From Escherichia phage vB_EcoP_PhAPEC7: DNA of 64,000 nucleotides. Both the position numbers and the translations under genes were made by a program. The stretch lies in sequence record NC_024790.1; one strand, given 5' to 3'. How positions within the stretch are numbered: the stretch's first letter is position 1; each line of letters opens with the position of its first letter. Below are positions 7,342 to 26,122 of this stretch, piece after piece. The notes under the pieces were generated by a model, which did not search any database, was not told where the DNA came from, and saw only the letters and a program-made list of their open reading frames with translations.

Positions 7342-7524
7342 ATGCCAGACATCTATGATGTTATTACTAATACTGTACTGATAGTTTTACCCGCTATTGT
7401 GATATTCACTATAGTTAACGCCCACAAATCCAAGTTTACCTATTGCTACTATGGAGCATACTCTGCCGGATGTTTTGTATTAGCTGGTTGGATAGCTTAC
7501 TGGATTTACCACATCAACAACTAG
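7342..7524 (+). CDS. Small membrane protein (60 aa; start trimmed from track ORF 7306)
   Basis: Track start lies inside the terminator stem; internal ATG has GGAGG upstream; two hydrophobic segments. Confidence 0.4.
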   Translation: MPDIYDVITNTVLIVLPAIVIFTIVNAHKSKFTYCYYGAYSAGCFVLAGWIAYWIYHINN

Positions 7525-7551
7525 CCACCCTCAAGGGTGGCTTTCTTTTTT
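7523..7551 (+). terminator. Intrinsic terminator
   Basis: AGCCACCC-TCAA-GGGTGGCT followed by T-run. Confidence 0.7.
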
Positions 7552-7598: not shown

Positions 7599-8432
7599 AT
7601 GCCAACCTTAAAGATTGCGTTTAATAAAACTACCAACGTTGCTACCGTGCTTGATTCAGGTGGCAGTGTTCCAGGTGGTTCTGTGGAAGTAGGTACTTTT
7701 GAACATCCAGATGCCACTTACCCTGATAGCTTAGTTATCTATCACGGTGTACGTGACCTGTTGTATAAACGCTCTGCTAAAAACCCTGCTGAAGAAGGCT
7801 TCTGGCCTAACAACATTGTGGACATGCAGTCGGTCACTATCGACATGCAAGCTACCCCACGATTGACTGTTGCTACCAAACTGCCTCGTGTAGTCTCCAC
7901 CATCGAAGGCGAAGACATTAACTGGCATATTGATGTGGCAGGTGGTAAAGCACCATTTACTTATAAGTGGCAATTCAAAGCTGATACTGCTGGTGCAGTA
8001 TTCGCTGATATTGATTCTGGTGATAACGCATCTGCTGCTACTGCAACATTGACCATTAGTAATGTAACAGCTACTTCTGCTGGTACTTATAAAGTGATTG
8101 TTACTGATGCTAATGGAACCACGGTAGAAGATACCTCGTTGCTGGCTGTAGGCTATTACGAAGCAAGCTCACTGGTAGCTACCCCTGCTTCACTGACTCT
8201 ATCTGTTGCTGAAGATACTGCTGCTGGTAAGACTGTAACCATTGCTGCTATACCTGTTGGTTCATCTGCTGGTACTTTATCTATTAAGACTGCTCCAGAT
8301 TCCGGTCGTGCTACAGCTACCATTACTGGTAACGTACTGACAGTTAAACCTGTGGCTGCTGGTGAAGCTACTTCTGTAGTAGTTACCAATGGTACTGTCG
8401 ATGTAACCATCGCTATTACTGTTGCAGAGTAA
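7599..8432 (+). CDS. Ig-like domain protein, putative capsid decoration protein (N4 gp17-like, 277 aa)
   Basis: Ig-like sequence features (YKWQF..., TATSAGTYKVIVTDANG); position after the RNAPII genes matches N4 gp17. Confidence 0.5.
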   Translation: MPTLKIAFNKTTNVATVLDSGGSVPGGSVEVGTFEHPDATYPDSLVIYHGVRDLLYKRSAKNPAEEGFWPNNIVDMQSVTIDMQATPRLTVATKLPRVVSTIEGEDINWHIDVAGGKAPFTYKWQFKADTAGAVFADIDSGDNASAATATLTISNVTATSAGTYKVIVTDANGTTVEDTSLLAVGYYEASSLVATPASLTLSVAEDTAAGKTVTIAAIPVGSSAGTLSIKTAPDSGRATATITGNVLTVKPVAAGEATSVVVTNGTVDVTIAITVAE

Positions 8433-8482: not shown

Positions 8483-8512
8483 GACCTCCCTACTAATGGG
8501 AGGTCTTTTTTT
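8483..8512 (+). terminator. Intrinsic terminator
   Basis: GACCTCCC-loop-GGGAGGTC followed by TTTTTTT. Confidence 0.7.
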
Positions 8513-8908: not shown

Positions 8909-9235
8909 ATGAAAACTTTATTTGCTGTTGTTCTAGTAGCTTTATCAGTTATGTCATTCGGTGCTCAGGCATCTAGTCGTGCAACCTTATTGGAAGCTGC
9001 TGCTGATTACAAAGCCGATAAGGGAAACTTTTTGAACCAGGGTTACTTCATGGGCATGGTTACCATGGGTGTAGAAGCAGGAAATAACTGTGTACCTGAC
9101 AATATGAAGTTAGGGCACATTTTTGACAAAGTGGCCTCTATTATTCTGTATGACCGAAAGGTTAATGCAGTAAAAATACCATCAGACATGGTTCTGCTAG
9201 CGATTGATACAGCGTATCCATGCGTTAAATCTTAA
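8909..9235 (+). CDS. Secreted/periplasmic protein with signal peptide (108 aa)
   Basis: N-terminus MKTLFAVVLVALSVMSFGAQA is signal-peptide-like. Confidence 0.45.
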   Translation: MKTLFAVVLVALSVMSFGAQASSRATLLEAAADYKADKGNFLNQGYFMGMVTMGVEAGNNCVPDNMKLGHIFDKVASIILYDRKVNAVKIPSDMVLLAIDTAYPCVKS

Positions 9236-9269: not shown

Positions 9270-10322
9270 ATGGCGAGCATTGACTCCTTGACTGTATGTA
9301 ATACACGCCAAGCCCGTAATTTTATTATCCGTGCCCTGCAAGCAGGTAACGTACCGTTCCTGACTTCATCACCAGGCATGGGTAAATCTGCAATTATCCG
9401 TTCTGTTGCAGAAGAATTTGGCATGAAGCTGATTGACCATCGTCTGTCTACTTCTGCCCCGGAAGACCTGTCTGGTCTACCATTCCGTAATGGTGACCGT
9501 GCAGAATTTATCCCATTCGCTGACTTATTCCCTATCGAGGGAGATGAAGTACCGGAAGGTTATAATGGCTGGCTCCTGTTCCTTGATGAGTTCAACTCAG
9601 CTAAGAAAGAAGTAGTAGCTGCAGCATACAAACTGATTTTAGACCGCATGACTGGACAGAAGAAACTTCACCCTAATGTGATGATTATCTGTGCCGGTAA
9701 CAAAGCTACTGACCGTGCTATCGTTAACCCACTGGGTACTGCAATGCAGTCTCGTGTTGTCCACTTCGAAATGGAACTTAACTTCGACATCTTTGTTGAA
9801 GACGTAATGATTCCGCAGGAATGGGATGAACGTCTGGTTGCATTCTTACATGCTAACCCTGGCTATCTGCATGACTTCGATCCTGCCCACAAGAACAAAA
9901 CGTTCTGTTGTCCTCGTACCTGGGACTTTGTTAACAAAGACCTCAAGAATCGACCAGAAGGTGCTCTGCCTGATGAAGATTCCCTATACTACAGTGGATT
10001 TGTTACACCAGGTAAGGCTGTAGAGTTTGTTCAGTTCACTCAGGTATACAATCGTATGATTACGATTGAGAAGGTAGTCAAAGACCCGCTGGGCTGTGCA
10101 CTGCCTGAAGATAATAACCTGTGCTGGGCTACCGTTAACCATCTGGCTAACAAGACTACTGAAGATAACTTCGCTGATGTACTTCAGTATATTGAACGCT
10201 TTAAAACGTTCACTCATAAGATTCTGTACTTCCGTACAGTAGGCAGAGCATTACCAGAAATTCAGGCTACCCCTGAATGGCGTAAGGCTGCTGCCAATAT
10301 CTCTCGTTACATTCACGGATAA
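9270..10322 (+). CDS. AAA+ ATPase (MoxR-like, 350 aa)
   Basis: Walker A SPGMGKSA, Walker B LLFLDEFN; paired with the downstream vWA gene. Confidence 0.65.
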   Translation: MASIDSLTVCNTRQARNFIIRALQAGNVPFLTSSPGMGKSAIIRSVAEEFGMKLIDHRLSTSAPEDLSGLPFRNGDRAEFIPFADLFPIEGDEVPEGYNGWLLFLDEFNSAKKEVVAAAYKLILDRMTGQKKLHPNVMIICAGNKATDRAIVNPLGTAMQSRVVHFEMELNFDIFVEDVMIPQEWDERLVAFLHANPGYLHDFDPAHKNKTFCCPRTWDFVNKDLKNRPEGALPDEDSLYYSGFVTPGKAVEFVQFTQVYNRMITIEKVVKDPLGCALPEDNNLCWATVNHLANKTTEDNFADVLQYIERFKTFTHKILYFRTVGRALPEIQATPEWRKAAANISRYIHG

Positions 10323-10329
10323 TCACAAC

Positions 10330-11505
10330 ATGAACCAGATACCTCAGCACACACTTAGTGATGAACAACTCATGCGTGAGTATGACCGTATTCAGGCGCA
10401 GGCATTCCTTGGACGTAGTGCAGCGTTTTTTGGTTCATTGCTGTGTAGTCTTAAGTTCTCATGGAAACGCGAGGACTGCCCTACTGCATGTACTGACGGG
10501 ATAGAACTCCATTTCAATCCAGACTTCTTTATCTGGATGTGCCCTGATGCGAGAGAAACAGTGCTAATGCACGAACTCTGGCATGTGGCATATCTACATG
10601 GCATCCGCTGTGGAAGCCGTGACCCGGAAATCTGGAACCAGGCATGTGACCACTTCATTAACCTTCAGTTAGAGGAAGATGGATACAAGTTCACTGGTAT
10701 CGACAAAGGCATTTGCAAAGACCCTCAATATAAAGGTTGGGTCGAAGAAGACATCTACGATGACCTGATGAAGAACCCTCAGAAAAGGCAGAAGCCGTCA
10801 GGGGGTGCTGGAGCAGGTCTTGCTGGCGACATGAAAGCTCCCTCTTCGGGGCAGTCCCAGGGTGCTGTTGTCAACAACGTAGTACGTGCAATGCAAAGCC
10901 AGAAGATGGCTGGTGGAATGATGCCCGGTAAAGGTGCTGGTCGTATGGAAGAGGTAATTACCCAATTCCTTAAGCCAGTGGTTCCATGGCAGGAAGTCCT
11001 GCTGAACTTCTTTACCGACATTGATGACTCACACTATACGTGGGCCAGACCTAACCGTCGTTTTACTGACATCTATCTACCATCTCTGGAAGATGATGAA
11101 GGACGCTTACGACACTTAGCTTACTTTGAAGATGTATCTGGTTCCATTAGTAGTGCTGACTCTCTACGTTTTAACTCAGAGGTTGCCTACGTTAAGAGCC
11201 AGTTCAATCCTAAGAAGATGACCCTTATTACCTTCGACGATATTATCCAAGAAGAAATAGACATCACTGAAGAAGATACTTTTGAAGAAATTAAGATTAC
11301 TGGTCGTGGTGGTACAAACCTTGAACCAGTGCGTGAATGGATTATTAAGAATAAGCCAACCGCTGCAATCATATTCTCCGATATGTATGTTCGTCCAATG
11401 GAAGAATTACCATTTGATATCCCTATCATCTGGTGTGTTCTGAATAATCCCAATGCTACCGTACCTTTTGGGGAGGTAGTTCATATCCCTAAAGGAATGA
11501 AATAA
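10330..11505 (+). CDS. vWA-domain protein with N-terminal HExxH metallopeptidase-like domain (DUF2201-like, 391 aa)
   Basis: HELWH zinc-binding motif; MIDAS-like DVSGSIS motif; partner of the AAA+ ATPase. Confidence 0.6.
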   Translation: MNQIPQHTLSDEQLMREYDRIQAQAFLGRSAAFFGSLLCSLKFSWKREDCPTACTDGIELHFNPDFFIWMCPDARETVLMHELWHVAYLHGIRCGSRDPEIWNQACDHFINLQLEEDGYKFTGIDKGICKDPQYKGWVEEDIYDDLMKNPQKRQKPSGGAGAGLAGDMKAPSSGQSQGAVVNNVVRAMQSQKMAGGMMPGKGAGRMEEVITQFLKPVVPWQEVLLNFFTDIDDSHYTWARPNRRFTDIYLPSLEDDEGRLRHLAYFEDVSGSISSADSLRFNSEVAYVKSQFNPKKMTLITFDDIIQEEIDITEEDTFEEIKITGRGGTNLEPVREWIIKNKPTAAIIFSDMYVRPMEELPFDIPIIWCVLNNPNATVPFGEVVHIPKGMK

Positions 11506-12011
11506 TGGTTGTTAATGGTAATTCTCTATACCGTTCATCCCAATTGCTGGATGTTCCGGACCATAAGGTATCGGAACATGGCGTAAGCTACGGACTAGGT
11601 GAAGCTGGTTATGATATTCGTATTAAGCAAGATATCACCTTCTATCGCTTATTTGGGTTGATTCCAATGGTGAAGACTGTCGATGCTGGGGTTGTTAAAC
11701 GCCACTTCGGTAAATTCGCATTGGCTTCGGCAATTGAGAAGTTCAACATGTCTCCGTCCTGTGTAGCTATCGTTCACGATAAGTCTACATGGGCAAGACG
11801 TGCATTATCAGTGTTCAATACCGTAATAGAACCAGGATGGAAAGGGCATCTTACCCTCGAACTGGTCTATCACGGTCGTAAGAAACTGCATATCCCGGCA
11901 GGTGCTGGGATAGCTCAAGTATTATTTCATCTGGTTCAAGAACCTGCTAATTACAATGGCAAGTATCAGAACCAGGAAGACAAACCAGTATCTGCTAGAC
12001 CTTCAAAATAA
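11505..12011 (+). CDS. dcd: dCTP deaminase / dUTPase-fold protein (168 aa)
   Basis: GEAGYDIRI motif typical of the dCTP deaminase/dUTPase fold. Confidence 0.55.
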   Translation: MVVNGNSLYRSSQLLDVPDHKVSEHGVSYGLGEAGYDIRIKQDITFYRLFGLIPMVKTVDAGVVKRHFGKFALASAIEKFNMSPSCVAIVHDKSTWARRALSVFNTVIEPGWKGHLTLELVYHGRKKLHIPAGAGIAQVLFHLVQEPANYNGKYQNQEDKPVSARPSK

Positions 12012-12227: not shown

Positions 12228-12300
12228 GTAGCTGCCTAAATAGCCCAGCATAGTTGGGCTATTTGTGAAGAAACTAACTCAACCCCACATAGGAACCATC

Positions 12301-12543
12301 ATGGAATCTTTAGCAGCAATCCTTATTCTGTTATTTGCACTAGCTGTATACCTTATCCCTACTATTATTGCTTTTGCACGAGGCCATGCCTCTAAGTGGG
12401 GCATTGGTGTACTCAATATCGTATTAGGCTGGTCTTTAGTCTTCTGGGTAGTAGCACTGATCTGGTCACTGTCCAACAAAGGTCAGAACCAAGTTACAAA
12501 TGTAACTGTTGTTCAAACCAATGGTGGCAGTAAAGCAGAGTAA
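12301..12543 (+). CDS. Small membrane protein, superinfection-immunity (Imm)-like (80 aa; start trimmed from 12265)
   Basis: Two transmembrane helices with the ARGHASKWGIGVLNIVLGW pattern; ATG 12301 has AGGA upstream. Confidence 0.45.
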   Translation: MESLAAILILLFALAVYLIPTIIAFARGHASKWGIGVLNIVLGWSLVFWVVALIWSLSNKGQNQVTNVTVVQTNGGSKAE

Positions 12544-12618
12544 CTAACTTAAGCATCATTGCATAGTGGTGCTTGTGGAAGTTACTTCCAGCTCATTGCT
12601 TATCCATCTCCTAATCCA

Positions 12619-12645
12619 AGCCCACCTAACCCGTGGGCTTTTTTA
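12619..12645 (+). terminator. Intrinsic terminator
   Basis: AGCCCAC-loop-GTGGGCT followed by TTTTT; lies inside the 5' part of track ORF 12559. Confidence 0.6.
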
Positions 12646-22836: not shown

Positions 22837-24507
22837 ATGCGTTACATCACCTCTCAGGATACTGGTAAGTATCCTATTGCTATCCTCGGTCATCAAATCC
22901 GAAGGGAGGAGATGATTAAAACCTACCTGCTGCCTTATGACCTAAGCATGGAAGATTTCATCTTCCTTGAACTTCATTCTGCCCCCGGCAAGAAGAAAAC
23001 TCCTGCAAGGGAGATTAAGGAGTTCATTCAGCAGGAACTGCAACAAGTACTGGATGATGCAGAGACTCAGTACATTATCTGTACCGATTCTGATTACTTT
23101 AAAATACTGACTAAAGAAGCTAAAGCAGAGGCTAACCTCGGCTATGTTTGTGACTCAGTATGGGGTAAGCAGAAGGTTATCTATACACCTAGCTACAGAC
23201 AGGTCTTTTATGATCCACCTGTAGTGAAAGCTAAGATTGCTCAGGGTATGGATGCATTACTTAACCACATTCGTGGGCAGTATGCTGAACCAGGACAGGG
23301 AATCATTGAGTTTGAAGCCTATCCGGATACACCAGAAAAGATTAAAGCCTGGCTAGACCAGTTGCTTGAGATGAATAAGCCTCTGGCTATAGACATCGAA
23401 TCATTCGGTTTAAAGCACTATAACGCTGGTATAGGGACGATTACGTTCTGTTGGAGTAAGACACAAGGTATAGCCTTTAATGTGGACTACGAGCCAATTA
23501 AGGGGGCTACTGAAGCACCCTATGGGCGTATCAACAGGAATGATGTTGTTCGTAACCTGTTACGTGAGTTCTTCATTAAGTACACTCAACGGCAGATGTA
23601 TCACAACATTAGCTATGACGTGTACGTGCTTATCTATCAGTTATTCATGGATAACCTGATTGATACGGAAGGCTTACTGCACGGCATGGAAATCATGCTA
23701 CGTAATTGGGACTGTACTAAGTTAATTACCTATCTGGCTACTAACAGCTGTGCCGGTAATCACCTTAGTCTGAAAGAACAGGCTCAGGAATATGCTGGTA
23801 ACTATGCTCAGGATGACATTAAAGACATTCGTCTTATTCCTAATGAGCAACTGTTACGCTACAACCTCATTGATGGTTTGTGTACGTGGTACACCTACGA
23901 GAAGCACTGGGATACTCTCATTGCTGATGACCAATTAGATGTTTACAACAATATCTTTAAACCAGCCTGTGAAGACATTATTCAGATGCAGTTAACCGGT
24001 ATGCCCATGAATATGGAAACCGTTAACCAAGTAGCTGAGGAGATGGAAACTGACAGGAACCAGGCTCTGAAAACTATTCGTGAGTCTAAGCTCATGAAGA
24101 ACTTCACCCTGATGCTTCGTCAGGAATGGGTAGACGATAAGAATGCTAAGCTAAAGAAGAAGCAAGTAACACTGGCTGATTGTGACATAGTGTTTAATCC
24201 TAATTCAGGGCCACAATTACAGAAACTGTTATTTGATTACATTGGCTTACCGGTTCTTGGTCTTACTAAGAGCAAGCAACCTGCTACTGACGGAGACACT
24301 ATTAAAGCACTGCGTACACATACGCAGAGTGAAGATGTTAAGGAACTGCTCAATGCACTTATCGACTATAAACTCGTGGATAAGATTATCACTAGTTTTA
24401 TACCAGCTTTCAGGAATGCCCAGCCGGGGCCGGATGGCTGGCACTACCTATTCGGCAACCTCAATCTTGGAGGCACAGTCTCCGGTAGGCTATCGGCTTC
24501 AGAGCCT
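22837..24507 (+). CDS. DNA polymerase I-like (family A), exon 1
   Basis: Ends in ...TVSGRLSASEP, matching Pol I TGRLSSxDP immediately before PNLQNIP; continues in-frame at 25214 after intron removal. Confidence 0.75.
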
Positions 24508-25213
24508 AAAATAAATTGGGCTATTTAAACCATGTGAATTCAGGGGAAACCCAGACCGGGCAATCCTGAGCCAAATCAACCATACCTGCCTTAGGAGGCA
24601 CATGATGGATATCAAGAATCTGTACGAGAATACTGACCTATCTCAAGCAGAAATATCAAAGCGTTTGGGTATTAATTACAAAAAAGTCTCTAAATATATT
24701 AGGGAGAACTACAGTAAAGAATACCGCCAAAGCAGAAATGCAAAGTCTTACCGACGCTCCAAGCTGGGGAAAAATAACCCCATGCTCGGTAAATTCGGCA
24801 AAGACCATCACAACTACAAAGGTTTAGTATCCGATAGTAAGGGCTACTTAATGGTACTTAAACCCGATTGGTATACTGCACGCAAAGGTAGCAAACATGT
24901 TTTTGCTCACCATGTAGTGGTATGTGAGGCACTTAATATCAGTGAAATACCTAAGGGCTGGTGTGTGCACCATTGTGATGAAAATCCATACAACAACGAC
25001 TTTGATAATCTTGTATTGCTAAGTGTTCCTGACCACGCTCGGTTACACTCAGCATTGAAAGGTGCAACGACTATCTCGAAAGAGAGTACACTCATGTGGG
25101 TGGAAGCGCATGGCACGCCTTACTATCTGGCGTGATGATATAGTCTGCTCTGCATAGGAATATGCAGCAGTCGAAAGACGGGCATGGATTAACGACCCAT
25201 GCTGAACAACAGG
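24508..25213 (+). mobile_element. Group I self-splicing intron (706 nt) carrying an HNH homing endonuclease gene
   Basis: Splits the conserved PNLQ(N/T)IP codons; 5' exon ends in U pairing with G of guide GGGCT (24518-24522) to give a 5-bp P1; intron ends in G; P/Q-like core 24535-24574; R-like GACTA 25069-25073 and S-like GATATAGTC 25137-25145. Confidence 0.7.
24602..25135 (+). CDS. HNH homing endonuclease (intron-encoded, 177 aa)
   Basis: HNH motif HHCDENPYNNDFDNLVLLSVPDHARLH; strong AGGAGG RBS; sits inside the intron. Confidence 0.8.
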   Translation: MMDIKNLYENTDLSQAEISKRLGINYKKVSKYIRENYSKEYRQSRNAKSYRRSKLGKNNPMLGKFGKDHHNYKGLVSDSKGYLMVLKPDWYTARKGSKHVFAHHVVVCEALNISEIPKGWCVHHCDENPYNNDFDNLVLLSVPDHARLHSALKGATTISKESTLMWVEAHGTPYYLA

Positions 25214-26122
25214 AATCTACAAACAATTCCATCCGGTTCTAAATATGCCAAGAAGATTAAGAAATGCTTCGAAGCCCCACCTGGCTGGGTATTTTGCGGT
25301 TTGGACTTCGCCTCGCTGGAAGACAGAATATCTGCATTGACTACTAAAGACCCCCAGAAACTTAAGGTATATACCGATGGTTACGATGGTCATAGTCTTC
25401 GTGCGTATGCTTACTTTGGTGAGCAGATGCCAGACATTGTAGACACAGTTGAGTCAATTAATTCTATTCAGACGAAGTATAAGCACCTGCGTAGTGATTC
25501 TAAAGCCCCAACCTTCTTGCTTACCTATGGTGGTACGTATATGGGCTTGATGAAAAACTGTGGCTTCTCAGAAGAGAAAGCTAAAACAACAGAGAAACGT
25601 TATCACGATCTCTATGTAGTTAGTGATATGTGGGTTCAGGCTAAGCTAGATGAAGCTGCCAAGACTGGTTATGTAACTGCTGCATTTGGTTTGAGAGTGC
25701 GTACTCCTTTACTGGCTCAGGTATTACGTGGGACATGTAAGACTCCATATGAAGCAGAAGCTGAAGGTAGAACTGCTGGCAATGCTTTAGGGCAAAGCTG
25801 GTGTCTATTGAATAACCGTGCTGGTTCAGAGTTTATGCGTAAAGTCAGAGCCAGTGAGTTCAGGTTAGATATACGCCCTAGTATTCACATTCATGATGCT
25901 CAATACTTCATGATTCGTGACAACATGGATACCTTGCAGTACACGAACAAGCATTTGGTTGAAGCCGTTAACTGGCAAGACCATCCTGATATTGCTCATC
26001 CAGAAGTTGGTTTGGGTGGGGAACTATCCTTGTTTTACCCAACGTGGGCTAACGAGATTGAGATTCCAAATCACGCTACCCCAGAAGAAGTTAATCAAAT
26101 AATTCAAAAGGCATTCGCATGA
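25214..26122 (+). CDS. DNA polymerase I-like (family A), exon 2
   Basis: Starts NLQTIP; motif A DFASLEDRI, motif B RSDSKAPTFLLTYGG, motif C IHIHDA. Confidence 0.75.
   Translation, partial: NLQTIPSGSKYAKKIKKCFEAPPGWVFCGLDFASLEDRISALTTKDPQKLKVYTDGYDGHSLRAYAYFGEQMPDIVDTVESINSIQTKYKHLRSDSKAPTFLLTYGGTYMGLMKNCGFSEEKAKTTEKRYHDLYVVSDMWVQAKLDEAAKTGYVTAAFGLRVRTPLLAQVLRGTCKTPYEAEAEGRTAGNALGQSWCLLNNRAGSEFMRKVRASEFRLDIRPSIHIHDAQYFMIRDNMDTLQYTNKHLVEAVNWQDHPDIAHPEVGLGGELSLFYPTWANEIEIPNHATPEEVNQIIQKAFA

Follow-up and report, generated by a model that had tools for sequence, protein, structure and literature searches.

The genes gp24 and gp25 of N4-like phages, which lie side by side in the window (the whole 64,000-nucleotide stretch of Escherichia phage vB_EcoP_PhAPEC7, NC_024790.1, that was analysed), encode a MoxR-type AAA+ ATPase and a partner in which a zincin-like metallopeptidase domain is joined by a flexible linker to a vWA domain, and we propose, with moderate confidence, that the two proteins make up an ATP-driven remodelling protease that acts on a conserved target in mid-infection. 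The pair is already known, since gp24 and gp25 are catalogued among the 14 genes that make up the N4-like core and are middle transcripts in N4 (PMC4193335), and since jumbo phages were reported in 2021 to have the same architecture. The present finding is therefore the correct reading of a gene pair already annotated, and what is new is not the domain reading; new are the wider distribution, the replication-like divergence, the targeting of both genes by inteins and an intron, the loss of the catalytic Glu in some homologs and the recognition of an HNH mislabel.

Why return to this pair? The two genes are among the N4-like core genes that have no assigned role, in a phage family that is a well-studied model and is also used in therapy. 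The original prediction was right to call the role in a lytic phage unestablished: PMC4193335 gives 'Unknown' for gp24 and 'vWFA domain' for gp25, and the lone functional proposal in the literature searched is that of PMC7824862, a virion-assembly idea for jumbo phages. A literature search for functional data on N4 gp24/gp25, DUF2201, DUF3150 and phage MoxR-vWA pairs gave annotations and this one proposal only, and the transcriptome papers on PA5oct, HH109 and LUZ7 do not mention the gp24/gp25 genes.

Features of the gp24-gp25 locus (positions in the window; residue numbers refer to the encoded protein)
Feature	Position	Strand	Remarks
Terminator-like hairpin, upstream edge of the gp24-gp25 unit	8483..8505	+	8-bp stem, 6 GC pairs, T7 tail
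gp24 ortholog, MoxR-type AAA+ ATPase	9270..10322	+	ORF; 350 aa, 39.6 kDa, pI 5.8
Walker A / P-loop SSPGMGKS, gp24 ortholog	9366..9389	+	P35, G38, K39, S40 invariant in 51 homologs
Conserved acidic segment HRLSTSAPEDLSGLP, gp24 ortholog, strand beta2 to Walker B	9438..9482	+	pore-loop / helix-2-insert region
Walker B LLFLDE, gp24 ortholog	9573..9590	+	D106, E107 invariant in 51 homologs
Candidate sensor 1 (N144), Arg finger (R162) and sensor 2 (R216), gp24 ortholog	9687..9923	+	
Lid and C-terminal helical extension, gp24 ortholog	9780..10319	+	AF2 helices 172-348
Spacer, gp24 stop to gp25 start	10323..10329	+	7 nt
gp25 ortholog, zincin peptidase and vWA domains with a flexible linker between	10330..11505	+	391 aa, 44.5 kDa, pI 5.0
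Zincin-like metallopeptidase domain, gp25 residues 17-150	10378..10779	+	pLDDT mostly >90
HELWHVAYLH, HExxH zinc site and H90	10570..10599	+	
WNQACDHFIN, second invariant motif	10633..10662	+	D107 candidate metal ligand
Gly/Ser-rich basic linker	10780..11115	+	pI 9.2; ends in W-A-RPNRR-FTDI-YLP motif (11041-11082)
Minimal vWA domain, complete MIDAS	11116..11487	+	D268-x-S270-x-S272, T329, D351
MIDAS DVSGS	11131..11145	+	
GRGGT of the vWA domain	11302..11316	+	
dCTP deaminase, gp26 ortholog	11505..12011	+	PF22769 3e-16, phrog_1663
Terminator-like hairpin, downstream edge of the gp24-gp25 unit	12618..12640	+	

The window is a Gamaleyavirus of the G7C/PhAPEC5-like kind, with nucleotide identities of 96.8% to PhAPEC5 and 93% to G7C, where the two genes are annotated as gp24 and gp25. 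The order gp24, gp25, dCTP deaminase is common to N4, G7C, PhAPEC5 and the window, and against N4 the window proteins are 61.5% (gp24) and 60.4% (gp25) identical. The same comparison gives 62.5% for dCTP deaminase, 68.7% for the helicase, 66.7% for DNA polymerase and 39-47% for rIIA/rIIB; in other words, gp24 and gp25 (about 61%) diverge like replication genes and are better conserved than rIIA and rIIB. The terminator-bounded unit holds gp24, gp25 and the dCTP deaminase gene, lies on the early/middle strand and has ThyX close by. Translational coupling of gp24 to gp25, which had been claimed outright, is plausible at a spacing of 7 nt, but the two reading frames do not overlap (TAA TCACAAC ATG); the tighter junction is that between gp25 and dCTP deaminase, where stop and start overlap (TAATG, 11503-11507). 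The dCTP deaminase gene is co-transcribed with gp25 and is treated here as context, outside the pair. A sigma-70 promoter scan gave sites no more numerous than in shuffled sequence; N4 middle promoters are of another type, outside such a scan.

Among Pfam families, only the generic AAA family exceeds its threshold for the gp24 ortholog (PF00004, 2e-6, 28.7 against a cutoff of 21.2), and the protein also matches phrog_1297 'ATPase' at about 1e-132 in PHROGs. Of the profile assignments anticipated in the original prediction, DUF2201_N and DUF2201 were recovered for the partner. AAA_5 (17.6 against 22) and bpMoxR (13.7 against 27) stay below their curated Pfam thresholds for the ATPase; a bacterial homolog does pass the AAA_5 cutoff (26.4 against 22). 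NCBIfam has no family for either ortholog. The assignment to the MoxR class comes from the structural match together with the adjoining vWA gene, and on these grounds it stands: the AF2 model of gp24 (pLDDT 87) finds its best Foldseek matches in NorQ (9qhg, 9qh4) and CbbQ (6l1q, 5c3c), the ATPases of the NorQ/NorD and CbbQ/CbbO systems, followed by dynein and midasin. The TM-score against NorQ is 0.46 when normalised to the query and 0.60 when normalised to NorQ, and the NorQ/CbbQ alignments leave part of gp24 uncovered, gp24 being about 90 aa longer than the NorQ/CbbQ chains, with an extra and apparently C-terminal helical extension. The top match in a PDB sequence search is a midasin AAA module (5.8e-5). 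The gp24 ortholog is, in short, a divergent branch of the MoxR class.

The Walker A and Walker B motifs that had been read in this gene are present, and their key residues are invariant across the 51 homologs compared, as are N144, R162 and R216, whose sensor and Arg-finger roles are suggested by their positions in the AAA+ fold. The acidic segment between strand beta2 and Walker B is similarly constrained (D56, H57, R58, P64, D66, G69, L70 and P71 invariant in the 51 homologs), and AF2 pLDDT is low at residues 66-72; judging from the helix-2 insert of NorQ (PMC13036017), this segment is a predicted contact for the partner protein.

The partner was predicted to carry an N-terminal HELWH motif and a C-terminal vWA MIDAS of the form DxSxS, and both are there, the first in DUF2201_N (PF13203, zincin; residues 17-253, 4.5e-54) and the second in DUF2201 (vWA; residues 263-386, 2.2e-34). 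As these two Pfam families account for the entire length of gp25, which also has a PHROGs match at 1e-145, we regard the 'HNH endonuclease' label carried by phrog_1314 and by many RefSeq records, including N4 gp25, as an annotation error; no HNH family was matched in Pfam at E up to 0.1. In the AF2 model of gp25 (pLDDT 80), the C-terminal domain has the vWA (Rossmann-like) fold. A fold search with the full model returned vWA matches only, so the zincin fold rests on sequence profiles, in which the domain matches the minigluzincin MJ1213/selecase (E 0.0017) and M48 peptidases (E 0.0027), the alignment spanning the HExxH helix and the strand just before it. Full-length gp25 has no match in a PDB sequence search, and the N-domain of a bacterial gp25 homolog has sub-threshold Pfam matches to SprT-like (2.6e-4), M48 and WLM families.

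Both sites are strongly conserved. HExxH is kept in all 49 N4-like orthologs, as the original prediction requires, and in these H81, E82, H85, D268, S270, S272, T329 and D351 are invariant. With the Pfam and PHROGs scores given above, such conservation goes well past anything that chance would produce. When phage and bacterial homologs are taken together, H81 and H85 are found in 69/69, E82 in 63/69 and H90 in 68/69; the second motif retains W102, N103, A105, D107, I110 and N111 in 69/69 and C106 in 67/69; and the MIDAS retains D268, S270, S272 and T329 in 69/69 and D351 in 67/69. By their conservation, H90 and D107 are both candidates for the third zinc ligand. E82 is replaced in six Desulfobacterota homologs that keep H81, H85, H90 and D107; proteolysis is therefore not family-wide, and the metal site may serve another role. 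The linker has pLDDT below 50 at residues 158-163, 214-218, 234-242 and 247-256, and despite this W238, P241, N242, R243, R244, Y249, L250 and P251 are kept in phage and bacterial homologs. The linker with its RPNRR motif is a candidate ATPase-docking 'finger'.

How far does the module extend beyond N4-like phages? Searched with a profile, 1.84 billion representatives yielded about 21,800 protein clusters at 50% identity; the best 150 matches listed all have E of 1e-95 or better and are seemingly close N4-like relatives, and the more distant context is drawn from genome and plasmid scans. The gp25 homolog has a gp24-type ATPase gene upstream of it, in the same orientation, at the majority of the 80 genome loci, and the two genes appear to be obligately paired across phages, plasmids and chromosomal mobile elements. 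In jumbo phage ph0011 and cyanophage S-TIM54 the gene immediately before the gp25 homolog encodes an ATPase that is annotated as MoxR or has an AAA domain; in an rV5-like phage the preceding gene has no assignment, and a MoxR ATPase is encoded nearby on the opposite strand. The module is also carried by 132 plasmids and by chromosomal mobile-element regions; in the latter its neighbours include conjugative-transposon genes (TraM, DUF4138), RadC-JAB, Mom, HEPN and, in Acidobacteria, RNase H and Sipho_Gp157; DUF5983 and nSTAND3 are further neighbours, the copy on the C. necator plasmid pBB2 has a PRTRC system gene nearby, and toxin-antitoxin genes lie beside that on Synechocystis pSYSA. In bacteria a gene of about 300 aa can stand between the ATPase and peptidase-vWA genes; single-linkage clustering had made it a second ATPase paralog, a reading that BLAST and hhalign reject, and some copies match DUF3150. 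Searches at E up to 10 found no homolog of this intervening gene in the window or at the other phage loci. Structural genes or Hsp20 lie near the pair in several phages (PMC4193335 among the sources), a setting that fits a role in virion assembly.

The work on NorQ/NorD serves as our mechanistic template for a MoxR and vWA pair (PMC13036017), and in the AF2 model gp25 is laid out likewise, with an N-terminal domain, a linker and a vWA domain. We infer from these features that gp24 would form a MoxR-type AAA+ ring, that gp25 would dock on it via its vWA domain and/or the basic RPNRR linker segment, and that the MIDAS metal would hold an acidic residue on a target, which ATP hydrolysis would pull or twist via the linker and the N-terminal zincin domain (HExxH with H90 and/or D107) would cut. 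A contact between RPNRR of gp25 and the acidic PEDLSG pore region of gp24 would suit such docking, though this is conjecture. NorD inserts a finger of roughly 45 residues into the pore, whereas the minimal vWA of gp25 has no such long finger, and the docking may therefore differ. The presence of the module on carriers that make no virions, together with its replication-like divergence, suggests that the target would be a conserved protein of establishment or replication, the element's own or the host's, and not a capsid or tail protein. Functions may differ between the phage and plasmid copies.

Other readings of the pair deserve consideration. It might instead be a virion-assembly chaperone with a maturation protease, in which the pair folds or assembles structural proteins and the zincin trims them. 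This is what Iyer et al. 2021 proposed for group 2.2 jumbo phages, with tail development by ATV p618/p892 as precedent (PMC7824862), and several neighbourhoods agree with it: the ph0011 homologs lie amid 'structural protein' genes, the S-TIM54 pair comes after Hsp20 with virion protein genes on its flanks, four virion-protein genes are near the gp24/gp25 homologs of roseophage RPP1 (PMC4193335), and in the window a Hoc-like decoration gene (7599-8432) is found about 0.8 kb upstream of gp24. We nevertheless consider it somewhat unlikely, as the plasmids and chromosomal mobile-element regions that carry the module make no virions and as the N4-like pair belongs to the middle genes, with dCTP deaminase and near ThyX, outside the late structural block. 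That gp24 and gp25 are missing from the N4 virion protein list (PMC4193335) is a weak argument, because a chaperone may stay unpackaged. A host-takeover or counter-defence protease, which would capture and degrade a host defence or stress factor soon after entry, would suit a module common to phages, plasmids and chromosomal mobile-element regions. RadC-JAB, Mom, HEPN, DUF5983 and nSTAND3 are gene types typical of conflict and establishment regions, and the PRTRC gene near the pBB2 copy and the toxin-antitoxin genes on pSYSA point the same way, as does expression that precedes the late phase (PMC4193335). This reading is unlikely in our view: the two genes are a strict core pair despite a host range that takes in Roseobacter, E. 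coli and Pseudomonas, and they diverge like replication genes and unlike arms-race genes. A universally conserved host target would be required. Nor do PADLOC models match in any meaningful way, gp25 having no match and gp24 only a 14-bit partial match to DolB (E 0.0045).

The six homologs that lack the catalytic Glu and yet retain H81, H85, H90 and D107 bring to mind a different role, that of a metal-insertion or cofactor-maturation chaperone, in which a target enzyme is opened and gp25 uses its His/His/His/Asp site to hold a metal or pass it on, with no cutting. The MoxR/vWA systems cited in the literature (PMC13036017 among the sources) include metal or cofactor insertases, NorQD, CobST, BchID and CoxDE are analogous systems, and the phage copy shares a unit with nucleotide-metabolism genes. 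E82 is, however, present in 49/49 N4-like sequences, and the strand and helix of the zincin active site align with those of true peptidases; moreover, no metalloenzyme client is evident. Neither dCTP deaminase nor ThyX is known to require an inserted metal centre, and we rate metal insertion as quite unlikely. The sub-threshold SprT-like and WLM matches of the bacterial N-domain raise yet another prospect, a segregase-protease that, like Cdc48/p97 with Wss1/Spartan, clears DNA-bound proteins that come in with the DNA or stay on it, such as virion RNA polymerase in N4-like phages and a relaxase or a pilot protein in conjugative elements, and so lets replication proceed. The elements that bear the module enter cells accompanied by proteins, the Acidobacteria copies lie near RNase H and Sipho_Gp157, and the middle-phase timing (PMC4193335) would be suitable. 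Against this, both proteins are acidic, Pfam searches found no DNA-binding domain, minigluzincins and M48, not SprT, give the strongest profile matches, and the link to virion RNA polymerase or a relaxase is conjecture; the chance that this is the function seems to us slight in the extreme. A broader formulation, which we find very improbable, would make the module a 'trans-FtsH' or Cdc48-Wss1-like segregase-protease that clears a conserved protein off incoming or replicating DNA, the N4-like target being, for example, virion RNA polymerase or another ejected protein whose removal would license the passage from early transcription to replication.

Returning to the remodelling protease that we favour, how does it compare with known systems? 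The pair that Iyer et al. 2021 (PMC7824862) described in group 2.2 jumbo phages has the same two-gene architecture of MoxR AAA+ and metallopeptidase-vWA; the ph0011 protein is 25.7% identical over 93% of gp25 (E 3e-14), carries DUF2201_N and DUF2201 and has its AAA gene directly 5'. At 441 and 474 aa the jumbo-phage proteins exceed the N4-like ones in length, and their genes lie amid structural genes, whereas the N4-like copies occupy a middle-gene, nucleotide-metabolism region. Other viral AAA/MoxR and vWA pairs, namely ATV p618/p892 and those of haloarchaeal viruses, are often in replication or accessory modules (PMC7824862, PMC7911831), but ATV has no peptidase domain (PMC7824862), the halovirus vWA proteins are not reported to have one (PMC7911831), and the likeness is judged here at the level of domain superfamilies. 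NorD (69 kDa), a metal insertase, and CbbO, a Rubisco activase, likewise have no peptidase domain, unlike gp25. With midasin (Rea1) the pair shares the logic of a MoxR/dynein-class ring and a substrate-gripping MIDAS, but midasin is one eukaryotic chain of nearly 5,000 residues and the pair is two proteins. Midasin has six AAA modules and no protease, and takes off ribosome assembly factors. With FtsH, an AAA+ fused to an M41 zincin, only superfamily folds are shared, motor and protease being separate here and presumably joined via the vWA; the same limited likeness applies to the proteasome lid, with its AAA ring, Rpn11 metalloprotease and Rpn10 vWA.

If gp24 and gp25 are indeed an ATP-driven protease with a separate motor and a peptidase-vWA subunit, they would represent a new type of regulated protease in bacteria and phages, and, in view of a module so widespread across several phage lineages, plasmids and chromosomal mobile elements, perhaps a common step in the establishment of mobile DNA.

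The two genes are themselves the targets of mobile insertions. Inteins are inserted between A105 and C106 of the gp25 homologs in P0244 and P0251, and an intron with a homing endonuclease is annotated in U1G gp24, whereas the window gp24 has no intron; G7C has an HNH gene between gp24 and gp25, and none lies between the window copies. In all that is essential, the gp24-gp25 pairs of N4, G7C and PhAPEC5 are the same as that of the window.

The phage of the window is a G7C-like, N4-like Gamaleyavirus of the family Schitoviridae, and the 2.2-kb region considered here is 96.8% identical to PhAPEC5 and 93% identical to G7C, with 57 phage records whose match covers 80% or more of it. Its two genes, coordinates of which are tabulated below, are orthologs of N4 gp24 and gp25 (61.5% and 60.4% protein identity, respectively); minus-strand ORFs within the region, the longest of 88 aa, are unlikely to be genes. 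In G7C, gp24 is annotated as an ATPase and gp25 as a VWA-like domain-containing protein; in N4, the two are 'similar to S. coel. protein 1/2'. Both are in the 14-gene core of N4-like phages, where they are entered as 'Unknown' and 'vWFA domain' (PMC4193335). The pairing of an AAA+ ATPase with an HExxH- and vWA-containing partner, read in the original prediction from the sequence, is real and its interpretation is supported. The genes, the domains they encode and their place in the core set had all been recorded before; as written, the finding adds nothing to existing annotation. Our literature search found no experiment on gp24/gp25 function; the pair stands for a core function of a model phage family.

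Features of the gp24/gp25 region and of related genes in the window
Feature	Position	Strand	Description
Terminator-like hairpin	7523-7542		flanks gp17 ortholog
gp17 ortholog	7599-8432		Hoc-like Ig-domain head-decoration gene
Terminator-like hairpin	8483-8505		flanks gp17 ortholog; one end of gp24/gp25 unit
ORF immediately 5' of gp24	8909-9235		108 aa; phrog_11132 (unknown function)
gp24 ortholog	9270-10322	+	350 aa ORF
gp25 ortholog	10330-11505	+	391 aa ORF
Intein insertion site of homologs	10645/10646		between A105 and C106 of gp25
Membrane protein (G7C gp27.1)	12265-12543		92 aa; final gene of gp24/gp25 unit
Terminator-like hairpin	12618-12640		other end of gp24/gp25 unit
gp39 ortholog, both parts	22837-26122		split family-A DNA polymerase gene
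gp39 ortholog, one part	22837-24528		563 aa
HNH_3 homing-endonuclease ORF	24602-25135		between the two halves
gp39 ortholog, other part	25199-26122		307 aa

What kind of ATPase is gp24? Among Pfam profiles, generic AAA (PF00004, 2e-6) passes its threshold, whereas AAA_5 and bpMoxR both fall under theirs; the PHROGs match is phrog_1297 'ATPase' (1e-132), and the best PDB sequence match is one AAA module of midasin (5.8e-5). With the confident AlphaFold model (pLDDT 87) as query, Foldseek ranks the MoxR proteins NorQ and CbbQ first, followed by dynein, midasin and clamp loaders. Structure, together with the neighbouring vWA gene, is what supports the proposed MoxR assignment. Walker A residues G38, K39 and S40, Walker B residues D106 and E107, and N144, R162 and R216 are invariant across 51 homologs, as are residues of an acidic segment, HRLSTSAPEDLSGLP, which lies between strand 2 and Walker B, the position at which MoxR proteins carry their pore loop and helix-2 insert. 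At TM-scores of 0.46 (query) and 0.60 (target), gp24 is ~90 aa longer than the matched NorQ and CbbQ chains; judging by the helices predicted at residues 172-348, it is apparently a helical extension at the C terminus that makes up the difference.

The DUF2201 assignment suggested for gp25 was recovered by Pfam as DUF2201_N ('putative metallopeptidase', 4.5e-54, residues 17-253) and DUF2201 ('VWA-like', 2.2e-34, residues 263-386). The structural model has three parts: a confident N-terminal domain, a low-confidence linker that is Gly/Ser-rich and basic (pI 9.2), and a confident minimal vWA domain. By profile, the N-terminal domain matches the minigluzincin MJ1213/selecase (E 0.0017) and M48 peptidases (E 0.0027) across the edge strand and HExxH helix, and a bacterial homolog gives SprT-like, M48 and WLM matches, all sub-threshold. 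Across 69 phage and bacterial homologs, with identity as low as ~26%, H81, H85, R93, W102, N103, A105, D107, I110, N111, Y143 and W220 are invariant, and H90 (68/69) and C106 (67/69) nearly so; the MIDAS residues D268, S270, S272 and T329 are likewise invariant, with D351 in 67/69. HExxH is conserved across the N4-like orthologs, with the catalytic E82 kept in 49/49 sequences. Six chromosomal homologs of Desulfobacterota (loci L045, L050, L057, L059, L074 and L082) have V, I, L or T in place of E82 but retain the MIDAS residues and every putative metal ligand, H81, H85 and D107 among them; these copies are probably non-proteolytic yet metal-binding, and with the catalytic Glu absent from one bacterial group, proteolysis would not be universal across the family. 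At the linker end, the pattern W-x-RPNRR-x4-YLP is conserved despite predicted disorder, as is typically seen where a stretch of protein becomes ordered only when bound to its partner. An 'HNH endonuclease' identity for gp25 (phrog_1314) was rejected, as no HNH profile matches and DUF2201_N and DUF2201 explain the full protein; the label, which N4 YP_950503 and orthologs in many RefSeq or Pharokka records carry, is an annotation error that has spread.

The two genes are separated by 7 nt without overlap, and gp25 overlaps a dCTP deaminase gene at TAATG. The hairpin-bounded unit comprises three small ORFs, gp24, gp25, the dCTP deaminase, a gp27-like ORF and an Imm-like membrane protein; it is preceded by RNAPII subunit gp16 and the Hoc-like protein gp17 and followed by gp29 and ThyX. 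N4 expresses its gp24 and gp25 as middle transcripts (PMC4193335). The small ORF next to gp24 has a hydrophobic, signal-peptide-like N-terminus and a weak, sub-threshold match to the immunity protein Rap1a (E 0.0046), and the membrane protein closing the unit matches the PHROG 'immunity to superinfection' (4e-31). The gp17 ortholog sits on the early/middle strand, away from the late structural block.

By tblastn, gp25 homologs occur in 693 phage records, including N4-like phages of many hosts, ~350-kb jumbo phages, rV5-like phages and one cyanophage. The jumbo phage and the cyanophage have an ATPase gene immediately 5' of the homolog. In the rV5-like phage, the gene at that place matches no Pfam family, and one for a MoxR ATPase is nearby on the opposite strand. 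When 1.84 billion representatives were searched by profile, 21,815 clusters were returned at E <=0.001 and 5,465 at E <=1e-30. Most of 80 fetched bacterial genome loci have a gp24-type ATPase upstream on the same strand. In bacteria and plasmids, a third gene of ~300 aa often lies between or after the pair (L036, 7033-7977; L020, 9150-9989; L086, 8097-8984, in locus coordinates); some copies match DUF3150, an ATPase identity was ruled out, and no homolog was found in the window or the other phage loci, all of which have the two-gene form. The module is present on 132 plasmids, for example C. necator pBB2, Synechocystis pSYSA and Rhodococcus pRHL2. On pBB2 (L086), a PRTRC system ThiF-family gene lies ~7 kb upstream, and chromosomal neighbours (alignment A3, from 14 genome loci) include TraM and DUF4138 of a conjugative transposon, RadC-JAB, DUF5983, Mom, HEPN, nSTAND3, RNase H and Sipho_Gp157; together these suggest that the module is mobile-element cargo.

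How might the pair work? In NorQD, a finger of the vWA domain inserts into the MoxR pore, touching the helix-2 insert; the ring twists, stretching the linker between the partner's N-terminal and vWA domains; and the MIDAS is the proposed grip on the target (PMC13036017). gp25 is laid out in the same way, from N-terminal domain through linker to vWA, except that a predicted zincin takes the N-terminal position, and we therefore propose a remodelling-protease mechanism. By analogy, gp24 would assemble as a ring, against whose acidic PEDLSG region gp25 may dock through its vWA domain and/or basic RPNRR segment; the MIDAS would grip an acidic residue on a target, which would be remodelled by ATP hydrolysis and then cut by the zincin. 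The pair would be an ATP-dependent protease assembled in trans, a functional counterpart of FtsH.

As to the role of the pair, Iyer et al., describing a homologous pair in group 2.2 jumbo phages, suggested virion assembly (PMC7824862). A purely virion-specific role is less likely than one in establishment or replication, because plasmids and other virion-less mobile elements carry the module, because the N4-like pair sits in a middle unit with nucleotide-metabolism genes, and because its divergence (~61% identity) matches that of helicase, DNA polymerase and dCTP deaminase (62-69%) rather than rIIA and rIIB (39-47%). Virion assembly, host takeover, metal insertion and the clearing of DNA-bound proteins are the rival candidate roles; that the pair is a segregase-protease common to mobile elements, removing a protein from incoming DNA, is a long shot. 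In cyanophage S-TIM54 (L085, 4490-7122), Hsp20, a MoxR-like ATPase and the gp25 homolog follow one another in a tight cluster that hints at a link to chaperones; the last two genes share a 4-nt overlap, with ThyX 3.7 kb further downstream.

Both genes are targets of self-splicing or homing elements, which usually occupy conserved sites in important genes. Two metagenomic gp25 homologs, P0244 and P0251, carry inteins (C...HN|C) placed precisely within the invariant motif WNxA|CD, one a mini-intein of ~140 aa and the other of ~310 aa; P0251 matches Intein_splicing (4.7e-11). In phage U1G (L089, NC_070872, 501-2435), a gene labelled 'HNH homing endonuclease # Phage intron' interrupts gp24, leaving two ATPase CDS of 107 and 224 aa, and gp25 is likewise annotated as two CDS; in G7C (L002, 7057-7533), an HNH gene lies between gp24 and gp25. 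In the window both genes are uninterrupted. Elsewhere in it, the family-A DNA polymerase gene is split in two, with an HNH_3 homing-endonuclease ORF between the halves.
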